From: Leucoraja erinacea | Lineage: Eukaryota | Reading direction: 5' to 3' | DNA: 64,000 nucleotides | NCBI RefSeq assembly: GCF_028641065.1 | Contig: NC_073384.1 | Span: 44,392,001-44,456,000 of the forward strand | Part shown: piece after piece, positions 10,401 to 34,087 of the stretch | Position numbering within the stretch: position 1 is the first letter of the stretch | Layout of the letters: each line of letters opens with the position of its first letter | Translations under genes and position numbers: made by a program | The notes under the pieces: model-generated | Databases searched by the model: none | Told to the model about the DNA's origin: nothing | Seen by the model: only the letters and a program-made list of their open reading frames with translations

Positions 10401-10715
10401 TACCATAATTTAGATGGAATATACAGAATAAGAAGTCCATTTAAGGCACTGGTTTTATACCTATATTTATACTCCTTCCTCCCTAGTTCAACGAATCATG
10501 AGCTTAAATTGTTTTAATTCTATCAGTGGATTTTTCATATAATTTACATGAGCCCCTTGCCTCCATTCCACAGCAAAGTATCATGTTCAGCTTTAGCATC
10601 ACTGCTGGCCAAAGATACTAGAGCAAGAGCAAGATAGACCATTCGGCGAAAAAGCCGTAGTAGGTCATGGGTAAATTTTAACGGCATCTTAGTAACCTGC
10701 TTCACGATTAGCGCC

Positions 10716-12456
10716 ATGGCGCCCACATTTACAACCACAAGCTCAGCTTACTGTTCTGCTATAAATTGCTCAAATCGCCAAAGTAGACAACCCCACCTAT
10801 CTTTCTTCAGGTTCCCCAATAACAAAGAAAGGTGAGAAAAAATTATCTGTCGCTATTATTCTGTTGTGAAAATATTATTTTCTGTTCTCCCATCAATGGT
10901 CATGGGGAAATTAGGTTTGTCGGTACATGAGAAAGTTATTAGAAAGTTTTTAAAAAATAGATCTAGGCTTACCACAATAATAAAGTTATCAATTTTTACA
11001 CTGCTGTACATTTTTGGTTTTGTTCCTGTTGTAAGGCATGCATGCTAGTGTAAGAAGATTTTAATAAGCTCTTCTATATTTAAGGTAAATTGACATATTA
11101 GAGGAAAAATGCATCTTCAATATACAGGTCTCTCCCCACCACTGAAAACAATTGCACTTAAGTGATATATCGCCCATTCTGCAGGTATGTAGCTATAATC
11201 AAATTTGTCCTTATAAGTTAATCCTATTTGATATTTTCTGTAATTTCAGATGTCGACAGTGGGTCCAGCATACTCGTCGATAAGGTCTCCTACACCGAAC
11301 TCCGGTGTACTTGTCAAACAACTGCCGTCTTTGTTCTGAACACTTCGAACTTGACCAGTTTTCCAACAAGCAGACCAAGAACAGGCTAAATTGGAATGCA
11401 GTTCCAACGTTCTTTGACATCCCTAACCCGCCGAAACGTCTGTCTTCCCAACGCAGGTTACTCAAGAGAAAGAATGAGAACCTATCCTCACCAAAGCCTT
11501 CAAAGCAGCAAAGAGGTAGGCCTATTTGCAAGTATTTTTTTTCCCTTTTAAAATAACATTTATTTTCTCACTTTGGCAAAATTACAAATTTGCATACTAA
11601 CTGATACAATTGGAAATGGTACAATATGTAATAGCATGTATGGCACTTCTATTTTCATTTGTGAAATGTTCACAAAACTATAATCACACATAAGGCCACT
11701 TGGTGTAGGTTAATAGAATGTGCACTGTATTTAAACATCCATTTAAAACTTCCTCAAGCATAATTTAGACAACATTTAAATGATTTAATGGGACTTCAAA
11801 AAATCAAGATCATGATTTTCTTTTGGTAGACTGAAATTGGTGCATCACATCTATTTTAAATGATAATTAGTAGTAGATGCTGCTTTATTTACATGTATGC
11901 TAAATTTATTTAATTTGTATACTTCTCATTTTCCCCCCCTTCTCATTTTTTTTTGTCTTGGCAGTGTCACACAACGTACAGGCCGGACATTGTTACTGTT
12001 TAGCTGCAGACCAAATTCATGAGAATGAGCCCAGCAGTGTTTCTCCAACTCCTGATGCACATGATCTAAAATTCACCCCAAAATGTAAATGACAGCAGAG
12101 CTCTGAAGAAGGAAAGACAGCGTACTTTCCGCCTCAAAAAAAAAGTACAACAGATTAAACTAACAATGGAAAGGGATACTAAAGAAAGAAAAACAATTAG
12201 TGACTTGATCAGAGGAGCTGGTGAATTTTTACAAGAACCAGCACGGTCTTTCTTTGTGTCATAATTGCGGAATGCGTCAGGACGTAGAAGAGCAAAAGGA
12301 AGACGATGGAGTTATTCAGACAAGGTAGTTGCCTTGTCCCTCTACCATCAGATTGCCTTTATGGTTTATGTACATCATCTGAGAAATAGAATAAAGAGAG
12401 AAATAGAGCATTGCCTTAAATCAAAGTTGCTTCTGATCCATGAGAAGGAACTTTGA
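10716..12456 (+). pseudogene. Spliced THAP-domain P-element transposase pseudogene (exons 10716-10831, 11250-11515, 11965-~12456)
   Basis: Kozak gcgccATGG. MAPTFTTTSSAYCSAINCSN..LSFFRFP|RCRQWVQHTRR*..RLCSEHF..NAVPTFF gives the C2CH THAP motif and AVPTIF-like box. Exon 3 has GRRWSYSDKVVALSLYH, typical of the P-transposase N-terminal region. Introns are GT-AG and phase-compatible. In-frame TAA at 11281-11283, frameshift near 12090, stop near 12262. Confidence 0.88.
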
Positions 12457-12746
12457 AATCTATTTATCTCTATCTTACGTTTATATATTATTATATATTT
12501 ATATATAATAAGTTAAATTTGTGCATAGTGTGTGTTAGAGCAATACAAGGGAAACTGCACAAAAGACAGGGATGGGGAAGGATGGGAGGGAAATGGGCAG
12601 AAACAGATAGATTAAGCAGGGGGAAAACATTTTAAAAGAAAATTAACAAAATATGTGAATTGATAGATGAGCTATATCACACACGTACTGTTCCCCTACA
12701 ACACTGATTACACTGCGAGAGGCATAACGGAAGTCAGGTTGAAAAT

Positions 12747-13894
12747 TGGATTGGATTTGGATTGGATTCAATTTATTGTCATTGTCTCATAAGAGACAAC
12801 AAACTGGACTTTCCTTATACAGGTGCACAACCTTTTAACATTTTCCGAAAAAGCACAAGATACAGAAGTCCACGACACAACATCCCCACAGCGGCACCAA
12901 AGTTCCCCACTGTGAGGGAAAGTCCCCAGTCAGCCTCCATGCTGATCGGGTCCCAGATGTTCACCCGCGTCGGGTAGCTCCGACCCCGAGCACCCTGTAG
13001 GCGCCGCTACGGCCCCAGCTGGCCCGATGTTCAGGCCCTGGGATACCAGCGGGGTGCGGGCAATGCCTTACCGGGGAAAGATGGAACCCCGAGCGTCGTT
13101 GTACGGGAGAACATGCAACCCTCAGCGGCCTGGATCCTCTAAATCAGCTCCGGAGCTTGCTGCACGGCCCCGGTAAGGCCACCGGTAGTCGCTGCGATGC
13201 CGCCGACTCCCGACGAACGTCCGGCCACAGGCTGAGCTGGGCGAAGATTCACGCCTGGTCGGAGCTCCAACTGGCGCCCCCGACAAAGGCTCAAAGAATT
13301 AAAGTTTCCCCCGCGATGTTGGTCATCCCTCCAAACTAACCGCGACTTGGGAGATCAGTCCGGGGAGGAGGCACAGCTCCGCGCTACCTACCTGTCGATG
13401 AAAGCATGTCCAAAATCCGACAAGTGTCTGGTCCCAAGGCTTTCGGATAAAAGGTTGGAGTCATAAAACAAAGGGTCCGATCCCCCAGGTGAGGCATCGA
13501 TCTTCCGAGATGTTTCACCCGTGGTCCGCGATGTTGAATCCTCAGCGGCCTGGCAAATCAGCCACCTCCCACCGGGAGCTCCACAGGCTGAGCTGGGTCG
13601 GTCCCCCCGACAAAGGCTCAAAGGACTCCGCGATGTTGGTCAGCGCCGGAGCTCAGTAAACCACAGCTCCCATGTCGATGCAGCAGGCCCAACACTCCGG
13701 TAGGTAGGTATCCAGCACTGCTGGAGCTCTGGTCGGTCCCGGCAGGAAAGGCCGCACGAATCCAGTAGGTAGGCCGCGAGGGGGGGGGGGGAGCGCGAGG
13801 ACGCGCCTCGAATAATAATCGCATCCTCTCCAGGAACCGACTGAAGTAAAATACTAAAGTGGTGGCTGCTCTGTTCCGTTGCGTACTGCCACTC
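12747..13894 (-). mobile_element. GC-rich non-coding retroposon nested inside the P element
   Basis: Minus-strand tail GACAATGACAATAAATTGAATCC(AATCC)n resembles the Rex-Babar tails at 21230 and 29890. CpG-rich body has an internal duplication (~13120-13330 vs ~13540-13640). Confidence 0.65.
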
Positions 13895-14009
13895 AGTGCA
13901 TTGAATGATTCAAGAGTGGTCAATCTTGCTCTGCTCTAGTGTCTTTGCTGCTGGCTGACATATACTAACTGAAAGATAACAAAACTTTTGGAATATTCAA
14001 TATCCCTGT

Positions 14010-15329: not shown

Positions 15330-16930
15330 ATAGAAACAGAAATAGGCCATTGGGCCGATCGAGTTTACTCCACAATTCAATCCTGGCTGATCTATCTTTC
15401 CCTCTCAACCTCATTTTCCTGCCTTCACCCCATAACCCCTGACACCTTTATTAATCAAGAATCTATCTATCTCTGCCTTAAAAATATACATTGACGGCCT
15501 CCAAAGACTTCTGCGGCAATGAATTCCGCAGATTCATCACCCTCTGACTAAAGAAATTCCTCCTCATCTCCTTTCTAAAGGAACGTCTGTTTATTATGAG
15601 GCTATGGCCTCTGGTCTTAGACACTCCCACTAGTGGAAATATCCTCTCCACATCCACTCTATCCGGGCCTTTCACTATTCAGTAAGTTTCAATGAGGTCC
15701 CCCCTCATCTTTCTAAATTGCAGCGAGTACATTCCCAGTGCGTCAAACGCTCATTATATGTTGACCTAATTATTCCTGGGATCATTCTTATAAACCTCCT
15801 CTGAACCTTCTCCAGCACCAGCACATCCTTCCTCAGATATGGGGCCCAAAATTGCTCACAATACTCCAAATGCAGTCTGACCAGCACCTTATAAAACCTC
15901 AGCATTACATCCCTGTTTTTATATTCTAGTCCTCTTGAAATAAATGCTAGCATTGCATTTGCCTTCCTTACTACCGATTCGACTTGCAAATAAACTTTTT
16001 GGGAATCCTGCACCAGCACTCCCAAGTCCCATTGCACCTCCGATTTCTGAATTCTCTGCCCATTTAGCAAATAGTCTACGCTTTTATTCTTACTACCAAA
16101 ATGCATATCTCCACACTTTGCTATGCTATATTCCATCTGCCACTTCTCTGCCCACTTTCCCCAACCTGTCCAAGTCCTTCTGCAGAGTCCTTGCTTTCTC
16201 TACACTACCTGCCCCTCCACCTATCATCGTACCATAGGCAAACTTGGCCACAGAGCCTTCAATCCCCTCATACAAATCATTGATAGACAATGTGAAGAGT
16301 TGTGGCCCCAGTACCAACCCCTGCGGAATACTGCTAGTCACTGGCAGCCAACCATTCCTTTATTGCCACTCTCTGCCTTCTGCCATCCAGCCAACTTGCT
16401 TTCCATGCTAGATTCTTCCCTCATATACCATGGGCTCTCATCCTCCTTAGCAGCCTCACGTCAGCACCTTATCAAATGCTTTGTGAAAATCTAGGTAAAC
16501 AACATCCACCACCTCCTGCACCCACACACAACTGACTGACTTCATCCACTTCACCACCAACTTCCATCCGGCACTCAAATACACCTGGACCATTTCCGAC
16601 ACTTCCTTACCATTCCTTGACCTCACCATCTCCATCGCAAGGGATAGACTTCTGACCGACATACACTACAAACCCACTGACACATGGCTATCTGGACTAC
16701 ATGTCTTCCCACCCTGCCCCCTGTAAGGACTCCATCCCCTACTCCCAATTCCTCCGCCTACGGCGCATCTGCTCCCAGGATTTTTTATTTTTTCTATAGA
16801 TGCTGCTGCACCCGCTGAGTTTCTCCAGCAATTTTGTGTACCATCCACTTACTTCTCCTTTGTCTATCCTGCTATTTACTTCCTCAGAAAATTCCAACAG
16901 GTTTGTCAAGTAAGATCTGTCCTTCACAAA
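15330..16930 (-). mobile_element. CR1 LINE (RT to 3' end), degenerate, interrupted at 16510-16841
   Basis: Minus ORFs LTNLLEFSEEVNSRIDKGE / VDVVYLDFHKAFDKV / IPQGLVLGPQLF / KFAYGT / LEYCEQFWAPYLRKD / FRKEMRRNFFSQRV. Confidence 0.9.
16510..16841 (+). mobile_element. Penelope RT fragment fused to its terminal repeat, inserted in CR1
   Basis: Translates DFIHFTTNFHPALKYTWTISDTSLPFLDLTI..TDIHYKPTD..YLDY..SHP..CKDSIPYSQFLRLRRICS (PLE RT). Flanked by CATCCAC at 16503-16509 and 16842-16848. Confidence 0.85.
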
Positions 16931-21229: not shown

Positions 21230-22163
21230 AGATTCAGATTCAGATTCAATTTTAATTGTCATTGTCAGTGTACAGTACAGAGACAACGGAATGCATTTAG
21301 CATCTCCCTGGAAGATGGACAGACTCAATGGAGGGGAGCGAGAAACCGGGGATGCGTTGGGCAATTTTCACCACCCTCTGCAATGCCTTCCGGTCGGAGA
21401 CAGAGCAGTTGCCATACCATACTGTGATGCAGTTGGTAAGGATGCTCTCGATGGTGCAGCGGTAGAAGTTCACCAGGATCTGAGGAGACAGATGGACCTT
21501 CCTCAGTCTCCTCAGGAAGAAGAGACACTGGTGAGCCTTCTTGACCAGAGTTGAGGTATTGTGGGTCCAAGAGAGGTCATCGGAGATGTTGACTCCCAGG
21601 AACCTGAAGCTAGAAACACGTTCCACCTCCGTCCCGTTAATGTGGATGGGGGTGTGCGTGCCGCCTCTGGACTTCCTGAAGTTTACAATGAGCTCCTTGG
21701 TCTTCTTGGAGTTAAGGGCCAGGTTGTTGTCAGTGCACCATGCTGCTAAGTGCTGGACCTCCTCCCTGTAGGCCGACTCATCGTTGTTGCTGATGAGGCC
21801 AATCACCGTTGTATCATCTGCATACTTGATGATGGTGTTAGTACCATGTACAGGTGTGCAGTCATAGGTGAAGAGGGAGTAGAGGAGGGGGCTCAGCACA
21901 CAGCCCTGTGGAACGCCGGTGTTCAGGGTGAGGGTTGAAGAGGTGTGCTTGTCTAACCTAACAGACTGGGGTCTGTTGGTTAGAAAGTCCAGTATCCAGT
22001 TGCAGAGGGAGGGGTCGATGCCCAGGTTACCGAGTTTGGTGATCAGTTTTGATGGTATAATGGTGTTGAATGCTGAGCTGTAATCGATGAACAGCATTCT
22101 TACGTAAGTGGCTCTGTTGTCGAGGTGGGAGAGGGCGGAGTGAAGTGCCGTTGAGATGGCATC
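21230..22163 (-). mobile_element. Rex1/Babar LINE, 5'-truncated, with ~200-bp internal 3' deletion
   Basis: ORF 21297-22097: [50 protein letters not shown]; (TGAATC)n tail. Confidence 0.92.
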
Positions 22164-29887: not shown

Positions 29888-31268
29888 TAGATTCAGATTC
29901 ACATTCAACTTTAATTGTCATTGTCATTGTACAGTACAGAGACAACAAAATGCAGTTAGCATCTCCCTGGAAGAGCGACGGGGGGTGATTGGCAGTCACC
30001 GAGGTACATTGTTGAGTAGAGTGACAGCTGCAGGGAAGAAGCTGTTCCTGGACCTGCTGGTCCGGCAACGGAGAGACCTGTAGCGCCTCCCGGATGGTAG
30101 GAGGGTAAACAGTCCATGGTTGGAGTGAGAGCAGTCCTTGGCGATGCTGAGCGCCCTCTGCAGACAACGCTTGCTTTGGACAGACTCAATGGAGGGGAGC
30201 GAGGAACCGGTGATGCGTTGGGCAATTTTCACCACCCTCTGCAGTGCTTTCCGGTCGGAGACAGAGCAGTTGCCATACCATACTGTGATACAGTTGGTAA
30301 GGATGCTCTCGATTGTGCAGCGGTAGAAGTTCACCAGGATCTGAGGAGACAGATGGACCTTCTTCAGTCTCCTCAGGAAGAAGAGACGCTGGTGAGCCTT
30401 CTTGATCAGAGTTGAGGTATTGTGAGTCCAAGAGAGGTCATCGGAGATGTTGACTCCCAGGAACCTGAAGCTCGAAACACGTTCCACCTCCGTCCTGTTG
30501 ATGTGGATGGGGGTGTGCGTGCCACCCCTAGACTTCCTGAAGTCTACAATGAGCTCCTTGGTCTTCTTGTGGCTAAGGGCCAGGTTGTTGTCAGCGCACC
30601 ATGCTGCTAGGCGCTGGACCTCCTCCCTATAGGCCGACTCGTCGTTGTTGCTGATGAGGCCAATCACCGTTGTATCATCTGCATACTTGATGATGGTGTT
30701 AGTACCATGTACAGGTGTGCAGTCGTAGGTGAAGAGGGTGTAGATGAGGGGGCTCAGCACACAGCCCTGTGGAACGCCGGTGTTCAGGGTGAGGGTTGAA
30801 GAGGTGTGCTTGTCTAACCTAACAGACTGGGGTCTGTTGGTTAGAAAGTCCAGTATCCAGTTGCAGAGGGAGGGGTCGATGCCCAGGTTACCGAGTTTGG
30901 TGATCAGTTTAGATGGTATAATGGTGTTGAATGCTGAGCTGTAATCGATGATCAGCATTCTTACGTAAGTGTCTCTGTTGTCGAGGTGGGAGAGGGCAGA
31001 GTGAAGTGCCGTTGAGATGGCATCCTCCGAACTCCTATTCTTGCGGTAGGCAAACTGATAGGGATCCAGTGTGGGGGGTAGGCAGCCTTTGAGGTGTGCC
31101 AGGACCAGGCTCTCGAAGCACTTGGTGATGATGGGGGTAAGTGCAACTGGGCGGAAGTCGTTAAGGCTTGCCGCAGTGGAGTGTTTTGGCACTGGCACGA
31201 TGGAGGTGGTTTTAAGGCACGTGGGGACAACTGCTTGGGCAAATGACAGGTTGAAGATGTCAGTCCAG
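29888..31268 (-). mobile_element. Rex1/Babar LINE, 5'-truncated, with uninterrupted 400-aa RT-to-C-terminus ORF (29996-31198)
   Basis: [47 protein letters not shown]; (TGAATC)-like tail; TSD ACGTCATAC(T/C)CT at 29876-29887 and 31269-31280. Confidence 0.95.
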
Positions 31269-34087
31269 ACGTCATACCCTCATACCCGCCATCTAATTCC
31301 ACCCATCGCCTATCAGCCTATCTCACTCCCCTACCTATATACTGGCTATCGTCCCTCGACACTCTCAATCTTGATGCAGGGTCTCAGCCCAAAACATCGA
31401 CCATCCCCTTGCCTCCTCAGATGCTGCTTGTTTTTTTTTTACAGTTTATTTTTTTGTTCTCAGATGGTTGACCTCCCTTTCTGATAGACACAAAAAGTCA
31501 GTTACCTGAAGCTGTATAATTCAATATTGATTCTAGAAGGCTTCAATGTGCCTTGATATAAGATGAGTGGCAAGTTTTCATTGGACTTTGTCATAAAGAC
31601 ACAGGCAGCCACAGACAGATAGGTCAGATGGGAATGGGAGGGAGAATTAAAGTGGCAGGCTACAGTAAGCTTCCCACAGATGCTGCCTTATCTGCCGAGT
31701 ATTTCCAGCATTTTCTGTTTTTATTTCCAGCATTTTCTGTTTTTATTTCTAATTTTAGCAAATGTAATTTCTTCATTTTTGACATTTTCTGTATAATTTT
31801 TATATTTTATAAATATTCCACAAAAGAATATAATATCAATGCTGTTTTTTTTAAAATCTCGTCTCTATTGTTTGCCCTTTTGCTCTCTATCTTCAGCGTT
31901 TACCTTTTCGTTTTACTATTTACTAGCGTTCCCATTTGAATTTTGCGAGGGCGGGTAGTTTTCTTTCAAATACTAGTCCTTAGTGTCCGTGGCACCATGA
32001 ATGGATTTTTTTAAAAAACATGTCATCAACAACTTTAGCCCTTGTACCTCTGCTGCCTCGCACTTTCACCCTGGCGCAGATTTGTTTCGTCGATCCATTC
32101 TCCTTAAAACTGATAAATGTCAAATGCTAAGTCGGGAATTGCCTATTGTATGTGATTGTTCGGGAACAGGGGGGTTTCAACTCGGCTTGCTTCCCATTTG
32201 TGATGGTGCTCCCTCTACCCTCCCGCTCGAAATCCGAATACAGGAAAGTCTTCCACTGTGTTCACGATAGACACTGTCCACTGCTCCTACGCATGCGTGA
32301 TGTTTCCACCCTAGTTACTGCATTGCACCACTGACTCACGGTAACAAACATCACCCAGCAACCGAACGCAGACGGGAGAAGTTCGTCTCCAGTTCAATAA
32401 CATATTATAAAACAGATAAATAATAAATAACTCGGCAACATATTTTGACATAATTGTTAGCCTTTAGCCACATTTTGCTAGGGCAAAATGCACAACCTGA
32501 GAACTTGAAAAATATCATACTTTACATCACTGAGCAGGCTCTTCGTTTACACTGTGCCTCATTGCTGTTGAAAGTTATGCAAAATCAAAAATGAGATAAT
32601 ACCAGAATCCATTGTGCAAAGTATGACATATTCAAAATCTTTCCTTCCCTGTATGCATTCACTTATCAAAGCAACAGAAAAGTTTTAAAGGATAAAGCAA
32701 TTATAATTTTCACAAATAAGCAATTATAAATATACCAGTTACTTTAAAATGTGTTTCATATTAGTTTGCTGGCATGCATCATAAAATACGTACATTCTAT
32801 CATTAATGAATGAACAATATTTGTGAATCAGAAAGATACAAAATGTCAGGAATAAGGCTAAATTTAGTTTGACATTGTCTGCATGAAATGTAATCCAATA
32901 TTGTCATTTCAGCAAATCTATCCAATTGAAGCATTGTGGTTCAGGACTTCGTACAACTTAATATCTGCCTTTGCAGAAAGGGGGAGAAATTGCCTTGATC
33001 ATAATAGTTCTGTAATTGAAACTGTGAAAAGTGAACAATGGTGTATGTCTACTCAAACAACTATGATATATGCACTATACTAAATGTGTTTGAAATTTTC
33101 ACAAATATAAACAGTAAAGTACTTCAGAATAGTAAACACATAAAATACCTGATTATTTAAACCTGTAAGCTTCATTGATAATTATTAGGGACAATTACCA
33201 CCATCTTTATGTTTAAGGCTTGATAACCTACCAAATGAATTGCATAATTTGAGCCTCTGCTTCCTTAATATGAAATATTTATACAAATCAAACAAACGTA
33301 CTTAAATACAGAAAATGTTAGTGCAAATTGGCATCAGCCAAAACATATGCACAATATACTGCTGACAGTTAACTGGATAAGATGCATTGACTGATCAGCT
33401 TGTGTGTCCAGTGTGCATCACCTTGTGCATTTTGACTGCTTTTTCTTAGGTTTTGGATAGCAGTCAATTTACTACAATTTTGTCCAAAAGGATTGGAACT
33501 GTTGCCCAGATTTGTCTCTTCTCTGGTATTTTCAAACTATGTTTTAGAACAAAACAATGACTTTCCTGTTCAGTTACAGAGCCACAAATTGCCAGATTTA
33601 TTGCTATCAATTTCAGGATTTACCATAAACCTCTCACTCTGGGTTGGCTCTGCAATAAAAGAATGACATTGTTGATGTGGATCAGCAGAAACAACCACCC
33701 TCAAATGGCTGGGGGTGGGGGGGGTTGAACTCAGCAGTTCAGGCAGCATCTGTGCAGGGAATGGACAGGCAACATTTTGAGTCGGGACCTTTCTTCAGTC
33801 ACCCCAAAATGACAGATACATTTCAGATTTTGTCAATTACTCACACTCCAGTCGATTATGAGCAAGTACTGCAGATCTACCTAACTTTGGTATTAGATTA
33901 TCACTTGTCACCAATTTTGTACCATCAGTCTTATCACATGCTCATTATGATAGCTATTGATTACTTCCTTACTCAAGAAGTGGATATTAGCATGTTGGTC
34001 ATTGGACAAATGATAGGTTTTGTGCATTATTAAGAGGCAATGAGTGAAAACTCCTTCAAAATGCATAATGAGCAATATAAACTAAAA

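Follow-up and report, generated by a model that had tools for sequence, protein, structure and literature searches.

An old, internally deleted P element in a skate genome and the very young insertions of its family

A 64,000-nucleotide (nt) stretch of genomic DNA (the window; C8:44392001-44456000 of a 2.19-Gb genome assembly, positions below being numbered within it) carries a P-family transposon at 10610-13947. The locus raises the question of whether a mobile P element exists in a cartilaginous fish, and whether this copy is itself one of its recent products. A reading made from the sequence alone had proposed such a host, and RAG2 supports it: its identity is 98% to a cluster from Amblyraja radiata, 83-85% to other rays and 74-81% to sharks; the host is a skate. 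Our overall reading, held with good confidence, is that the window element is an old, deleted copy of a skate P family, the youngest members of which were inserted very recently and were likely moved in trans by an intact 882-amino-acid (aa) THAP-DDE transposase encoded elsewhere.

The element is flanked by exact copies of the octamer CTGCTGGC (10602-10609 and 13948-13955, both + strand). The perfect 8-bp target-site duplication (TSD) claimed from the sequence is thereby borne out; an exact 8-mer match at one given pair of ends is expected by chance at ~2e-5. The terminal inverted repeats (TIRs) measure 35 nt on the left (10610-10644, + strand) and 34 nt on the right (13914-13947, − strand), and are identical at 31 of 35 aligned positions, with three substitutions and one indel. 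Both start with CAAAGA as described, but their length is ~34 bp and not the 31 bp first proposed. Between them lies, on the + strand, the three-exon gene that had been predicted, with THAP and transposase N-terminal coding parts and canonical splice sites. Exon 1 (10716-10831, ATG at 10716) holds the first half of the THAP domain (Pfam E 7.6e-4, below the score cut-off) and aligns with exon 1 of an intact family member, L062; exon 2 (11250-11515) holds the second half (E 1.1e-6, above the cut-off). Intron 1 (10832-11249) and intron 2 (11516-11964) are both GT..AG here, the latter being GC..AG in young copies. To see splicing in the family, oligo-dT reads from ~5% of one run (X24) were mapped on L062, so that these data describe the family and not the window copy: intron 1 (GT..AG) was skipped in 124 reads, and intron 2, from the GC donor that had been predicted, in 138. 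Exon 3 (11965-12352), delimited by alignment with L062 and a model of its intact exon, is a remnant with the linker, the predicted coiled coil and the start of the helix-turn-helix (HTH), and it ends before the RNase H domain.

The gene does not work. Its spliced frame ends at codon 50, at a TAA inside the THAP domain (11281-11283, exon 2), which rules out an intact gene; exon 3 carries a +1 frameshift near 12080 and then a TAA at 12262. Transposase homology stops at 12352, the whole catalytic region being deleted. There follows a 3' non-coding remnant of the element (12353-12740, + strand), recognised by blastn against the C956 and C1188 elements and against L021, L034, L036 and L141, and joined over an internal deletion of ~7 kb relative to the 10.5-kb copies, a size that partly reflects their own nested insertions. 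The interval 12742-13846 is occupied by an interspersed repeat, GC-rich and high in copy number, that has no relation to the P family and is defined by its genome matches, with 3912 first-look candidates (best non-self matches 71-80% identical, best 40 scored). It was inserted after the P element. From its short tandem tail it is likely to be a minus-strand fragment of a retroelement without long terminal repeats (non-LTR); no TSD was found around it. The right subterminal region (13851-13913, + strand) matches the right ends of L021, L122, L138, L141 and L143. Divergence from the nearest fetched relatives is 7-10% (Kimura two-parameter distance, K2P, 0.074-0.096), and the first 291 nt have a best near-full-length non-self match of 82% (best 40 of 1155 candidates). 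The window copy is an old, internally deleted, non-coding pseudogene, that is, an ordinary fossil.

The family to which it belongs is dispersed through the genome. With the left 291 nt as query, 42 non-self matches of 72-86% identity were obtained (best 40 of 1155 candidates scored), and with the right 122 nt, 39 of 75-82% (best 40 of 250 candidates scored). Among these 39 older right-end loci, paired TIRs came with a perfect 8-bp TSD in 16, with one mismatch in 8, two in 4 and three or more in 7, while 4 loci yielded no pair; thus 24 of the 39 carry at most one mismatch. When 33 sites pre-selected for an 8-bp match were examined, no exact duplication was found at any other length from 4 to 12. 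Over the first 1.74 kb beyond its left end, the window element has 82-85% nucleotide identity to the family, and the same range holds for its coding part against the full-length copy on C956. A Pfam search of the genome returned 38 matches to the GTP-insertion domain and 40 to the RNase-H-N domain, several of them within loci tied to the window element. With a separate THAP9-like gene in view, the RNase-H-N set was compared with the DNA matches to this P family: 39 of the 40 fall at shared positions, and the 40th lies among tandem copies on C633 (best candidates only). On that unplaced contig, at least five partial P-transposase matches stand in tandem (C633:222,000-246,000).

The identity of the transposase was read from the full-length relatives. 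In a PDB sequence search the long exon of L062 had a sole match, the Drosophila P transposase (6p5a, E 1.3e-42), and four P-transposase Pfam domains were found over their cut-offs, the GTP-binding insertion domain among them (PF21788, E 5.5e-16). An AlphaFold model of the long exon (76-row alignment, mean confidence score pLDDT 85) matched 6p5a with E 1e-26 and a template-modelling (TM) score of 0.85, as against E 4e-5 and TM 0.30 for Hermes; Hermes and RAG1 both gave 4e-5 or worse. The equivalents of the DDE triad D230/D303/E531 are D315/D405/E633 of the 882-aa open reading frame (ORF), all of which are deleted in the window copy. When the GTP contacts listed for the Drosophila enzyme (in the sections of PMC7776569 cited here) were compared, seven of eight were identical (the equivalents of D528, K385, V401, S409, F443, D444 and N447) and K400 was replaced by R; the S409 equivalent, S386, is invariant. 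Pfam and the exon joints in RNA place the N-terminal THAP domain and the transposase in one spliced gene, an arrangement broken in the window copy. These sequence, domain, residue and fold matches establish membership of the P superfamily, and the full-length relatives encode a P transposase and not the hAT or other non-P enzyme that the sequence-only reading had named as the contrary outcome. In a quick tree of 77 rows, the skate proteins formed a clade (support 100) with six unnamed sequences and a fragment from Merluccius polli; the other named rows were molluscs, the THAP9, Pdre and Galileo proteins being left out. The Merluccius polli fragment (P0217) is 59% identical to the skate protein over 194 aa. 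It falls in the skate clade and lies inside a teleost protein annotated as O-GlcNAcase, and on this sequence likeness it offers a possible lead to horizontal transfer.

Evidence for recent movement came from a much younger subfamily. One young 34-nt TIR has 205 exact matches in the genome (0 for the reversed control), from which ~100 very young elements are estimated. One hundred listed matches of the 205 resolved into 41 pairs and 18 single ends, and 40 pairs were fetched; the TIRs of the young copies are perfect over 34 nt. Perfect TSDs, all different, were found at 37 of the 40 pairs (one of the others had 2 mismatches and two had 5), and the 41st pair, L154, has a perfect TSD as well. The fetched elements are of two non-coding types: elements of ~3.5 kb (24 copies, median pairwise difference 0.34%) and elements of ~4.2-4.7 kb (16 copies, 15 of them measured, median pairwise divergence 0.53%). 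The last 1.5 kb of the larger type also occur in full-length C1188, at 5-12 mismatches. Pooled young targets follow R-GTC..GAC-Y, with G1 in 40 of 74, T2 in 45 of 74 and C3 in 39 of 74 (each P<1e-7) and an enriched purine at −1. The Drosophila P target motif is palindromic, GTCCGGAC / ATRGTCCGGACWAT (in the part of PMC2577343 that describes it), so that the core GTC..GAC is common to both. Taken together with the older loci, these results show a mobile, multi-copy P family with distinct 8-bp TSDs; the many other TIR-bounded copies answer the doubt, raised in the sequence-only reading, that none might exist. Copies other than that in the window have moved recently, and the family as a whole likely did so very recently.

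A likely source for this movement is present. Three full-length copies (L062, L064 and L066) contain an intact 882-codon ORF under predicted splicing. The other near-identical full-length copies are L061, with a +2 shift, L063, with deletions in exon 2, and L065, without a start; the copy on C956 (10,519 nt) has both TIRs and a perfect TSD together with a +2 frameshift. C1087, the contig of intact L062, differs from 17 young copies by 1-14 substitutions over 3,350 nt. The ratio of non-synonymous to synonymous change (dN/dS) of L062 against all 14 non-identical copies tested is 0.15-0.37; for L061 against L062 it is 0.17, from 14 synonymous and 8 non-synonymous changes, and comparison with a second subfamily gives 0.18-0.21.

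P transposition is a GTP-dependent cut-and-paste reaction that leaves long 3' overhangs of 17 nt. By homology with the Drosophila element, the THAP domain would bind subterminal sites, and the transposase would pair the ends with a GTP cofactor, excise the element and insert it, with an 8-bp stagger, at a target resembling GTC..GAC. Internally deleted copies would arise by incomplete gap repair at the donor site. The window copy was probably made in this way in an earlier wave, and then received the nested retroelement and its point mutations; any product left to it would be a stub of no more than 49 aa. An L062-like transposase most likely mobilised the young non-autonomous copies in trans.

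Whether the family is still transposing is a separate question. It is possible, and we propose it tentatively, that immobilised helpers make a spliced, fully active 882-aa transposase that mobilises the 3.5-6 kb non-autonomous elements in trans. Alternatively, the family may be recently extinct: the burst would be real, the last mobile source would be gone, and the intact ORFs, stranded by segmental duplication, would mobilise nothing; this too is a serious possibility that falls short of an even chance. Several results weigh against continued activity and, in part, against the preferred reading itself. Among the six full-length copies, which are 99-100% alike, there is none in which an intact ORF occurs together with two TIRs and a TSD, and this lack of a complete autonomous element counts in favour of extinction. 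C1087 and C1296 have intact ORFs without either end, the flanks of C1305 are mismatched, and the left TIRs of C1188 and C1305 are 2 positions off the young TIR. All six lie on unplaced contigs. The left flanks of C1188 and C1305 are 98.6% alike, and so are the right flanks of C1296 and C1305 at 98.9%; because flanks are common to several, some of the full-length copies would be segmental duplicates, haplotigs or assembly chimeras and not insertions. The idea of six fresh insertions was rejected, since the flanks are shared or mismatched, and the assembly around these copies may be incomplete or chimeric. The young targets show no enrichment of the A at −3, which belongs to the outer A/T of the 14-bp Drosophila motif (23 of 74, P 0.21).

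The RNA is also less favourable than the splice counts alone. Of the mapped reads, 125 depart from the reference at L062:4516, and one base of exon 1 is missing in 98 of 155. The 4516 deletion-junction sequence occurs 19 times in the genome and marks an internally deleted class of 6 kb, in which 9 of 9 readable copies carry the same −1 frameshift in exon 1; because of it, most deletion copies cannot make a whole THAP domain. Of 11 deletion-class loci, three are bounded by two TIRs and by perfect TSDs that differ from one locus to the next; at a fourth, the TSD agrees at 7 of 8 positions. Most spliced family reads come from these copies, and the abundant spliced RNA was for most reads rejected as transposase mRNA. 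Depth is ~1-8 over the catalytic exon compared with ~190 on exon 2, a low level that suits extinction. In addition, no two young copies are identical, the nearest pairs being at least 1 substitution apart in compared blocks of 1.5-2.1 kb. Substitution rates in cartilaginous fish are slow, so that 0.3-0.5% divergence may equal a few million years.

On the other side, three uninterrupted 882-codon ORFs count against extinction. P elements are established to be mobilised in trans, and a helper copy therefore needs no ends of its own. Moreover, RNA coverage of the catalytic exon exceeds the unique intron background, and a second run (X1, which we guess to be RNA) gave a gap-free 1.66-kb contig over 5034-6697, with no stop among the 11 visible differences listed. 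On sequence grounds the family may be a working vertebrate P element.

It is unlikely that the intact or spliced sequences represent a domesticated host gene resembling THAP9, or a repressor of the KP kind, of which the TIR-bounded copies are fossils. It is true that one end or both are missing from the intact ORFs, that these are duplicated where they stand, that dN/dS is below 1, and that the deletion copies, KP-like in anatomy, dominate the RNA; there is also a stationary, THAP-less ORF (L067, below) near-identical to a 32-member protein cluster. However, the 3' block of the intact copies is almost letter for letter that of dispersed, TSD-bounded insertions, which a long-domesticated gene would not share. 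Purifying selection is also expected on a propagating transposase, and the exon 1 frameshift in 9 of 9 readable deletion copies speaks against a repressor. A KP-type protein is improbable: only one readable copy of nine (L156) regains the frame (179 aa), the middle of its THAP domain still being out of frame.

That the window element is itself recent and potentially functional, as its perfect TSD, recognisable TIRs and canonical splice sites might suggest and as the sequence-only reading had supposed in speaking of a fairly recent insertion, is very unlikely. Perfect TSDs also persist in 16 of 39 other older copies, and a working gene is contradicted by the stop in the THAP domain, the frameshift, the second stop, the catalytic deletion and the old nested repeat. 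Its K2P distance to the nearest relative is 0.07-0.10, compared with 0.003-0.005 within the young subfamilies, to which the recent activity belongs. A hAT or other non-P element with an acquired THAP domain, which the 8-bp TSDs of hAT elements and the preference of Hermes and hobo for GT....AC-type targets (in the cited passages of PMC2577343) would allow, can practically be dismissed, as sequence and fold searches give a P transposase with a GTP-binding insertion and no hAT or BED Pfam family matches the skate transposase at E<0.01.

Several further observations were made on the family. The left flank common to C1188 and C1305 breaks off ~90 bp sooner in the former, precisely where it meets the TIR; this looks like an adjacent deletion made by transposase, or an assembly join. 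The right flank of C1305 was considered as the L186 locus and rejected, since at only ~94% likeness it is a repeated target at a different site. L067:4374-6572 (C3, ~15,877,200-15,879,400) is a stationary P-transposase frame of 733 codons, ~79% identical in nucleotides to the young subfamily, with the DDE retained, two GTP-site changes and a right TIR; THAP exons and a left TIR were not found within 14 kb upstream. Compared with a cluster of 32 proteins of 677 aa, it is 2-11 residues off the 15 members listed, and it is by sequence a candidate domesticated gene. A second full-length subfamily (L068-L071, L074, L075 and L077) is ~80% identical to L062, with open frames of at most 586 codons; it was found at C8:74.41-74.43 Mb, C996, C4:36.18 Mb, C1530, C1132 and C1300, two copies standing ~12 kb apart in tandem on C8. 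The 6-kb deletion class corresponds to L153-L166 (C1, C12, C13, C20, C35 and unplaced contigs) and is KP-like. Among the insertions L129, L137, L140, L142, L160 and L025, several share one insertion point within a common short repeat (flank CCCTTCT), a target hotspot. Hairpins of two facing TIR-like halves (CAAAGAT...ATCTTTG) occur inside elements (L061:7404-7514, with equivalents within the first intron of full-length copies) and are likely collapsed mini-elements or excision footprints. An Rfam scan of the window gave no match. Outside the element, the ORFs at 29996-31279 (427 codons), 21297-22163 (288 codons) and 15705-16199 (164 codons), all on the − strand, resemble what we take to be fragments of reverse transcriptase from long interspersed nuclear elements.

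With the Drosophila melanogaster P element (PDB 6P5A/6PE2) the skate family shares the THAP domain, coiled coil, HTH and split RNase H domain with a GTP-binding insertion, as well as a spliced gene, TIRs of similar length, an 8-bp TSD and many internally deleted, non-autonomous copies. The two differ in that the proteins are only ~25% identical over the core (882 aa in skate), the skate TIRs are 34 bp with a CAAAGA start and those of Drosophila 31 bp, the skate gene has two introns (one GC-AG in young copies) and the Drosophila gene three, the enriched A-3/T+3 target flank is absent in skate, and the skate full-length copies reach 10.5 kb because of nested repeats. Drosophila KP and the skate deletion class are both abundant, transcribed and internally deleted, and both keep the THAP exons and the 3' end. 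Whereas KP encodes a 207-aa repressor (by the account of KP in PMC7776569), the frameshift in exon 1 makes a repressor protein unlikely from most skate copies.

Among vertebrates, zebrafish Pdre/zfTHAP9 likewise provides P-like elements with 8-bp TSDs and deleted copies (sections of PMC10983969 and PMC7776569). Pdre has 13-bp TIRs and ~50 homologous sequences with one full-length gene; its protein excised but did not integrate in the published assays, and the fly enzyme failed integration in human cells in the same study (both from the portions of PMC10983969 on this system). In contrast, the skate family has 34-bp TIRs, ~100 very young elements and several intact ORFs. Human THAP9 shows the same domain order (as outlined in PMC7776569), but is single-copy, without TIRs or deleted copies, whereas the skate family is multi-copy and TIR-bounded and includes deleted copies. 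The very long, foldback-like TIRs of Galileo (as characterised in the excerpt of PMC3688188) are not a feature of the 34-nt skate ends. P elements were noted in platyfish and coelacanth, with neither anatomy nor age nor an intact gene given for them there, and the elephant shark was described as poor in DNA transposons and dominated by retroelements (Chalopin et al. 2015, in the relevant parts of PMC4350176). No description of P elements in skates or sharks was found in the literature, with Repbase, Dfam and supplements outside the scope; the main texts of two skate genome papers contain neither 'P element' nor 'transposon' (supplements likewise outside the scope), and that of the THAP9 survey PMC10824691 contains neither 'fish' nor 'shark'. 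An automatic DNA/P annotation of the skate family may already exist. The family is a new addition to the known P superfamily.

Knowledge of vertebrate P transposases comes mainly from domesticated THAP9 and zebrafish Pdre/THAP9. What the skate family offers is a P transposase native to a vertebrate, its catalytic and GTP-binding residues intact, together with its cognate 34-bp ends and genomic proof that these were integrated very recently. It is also an example of a young burst of DNA transposons in a cartilaginous fish. From its sequence, the skate protein is a good candidate for a vertebrate P transposase able to integrate. With intact residues, cognate ends and recent integration together, whether a vertebrate P transposase completes transposition, and what THAP9 has lost, become directly testable. 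If the family is indeed still transposing, it would be a native vertebrate P system that carries out both excision and integration on its own ends, which zebrafish THAP9 did not show.

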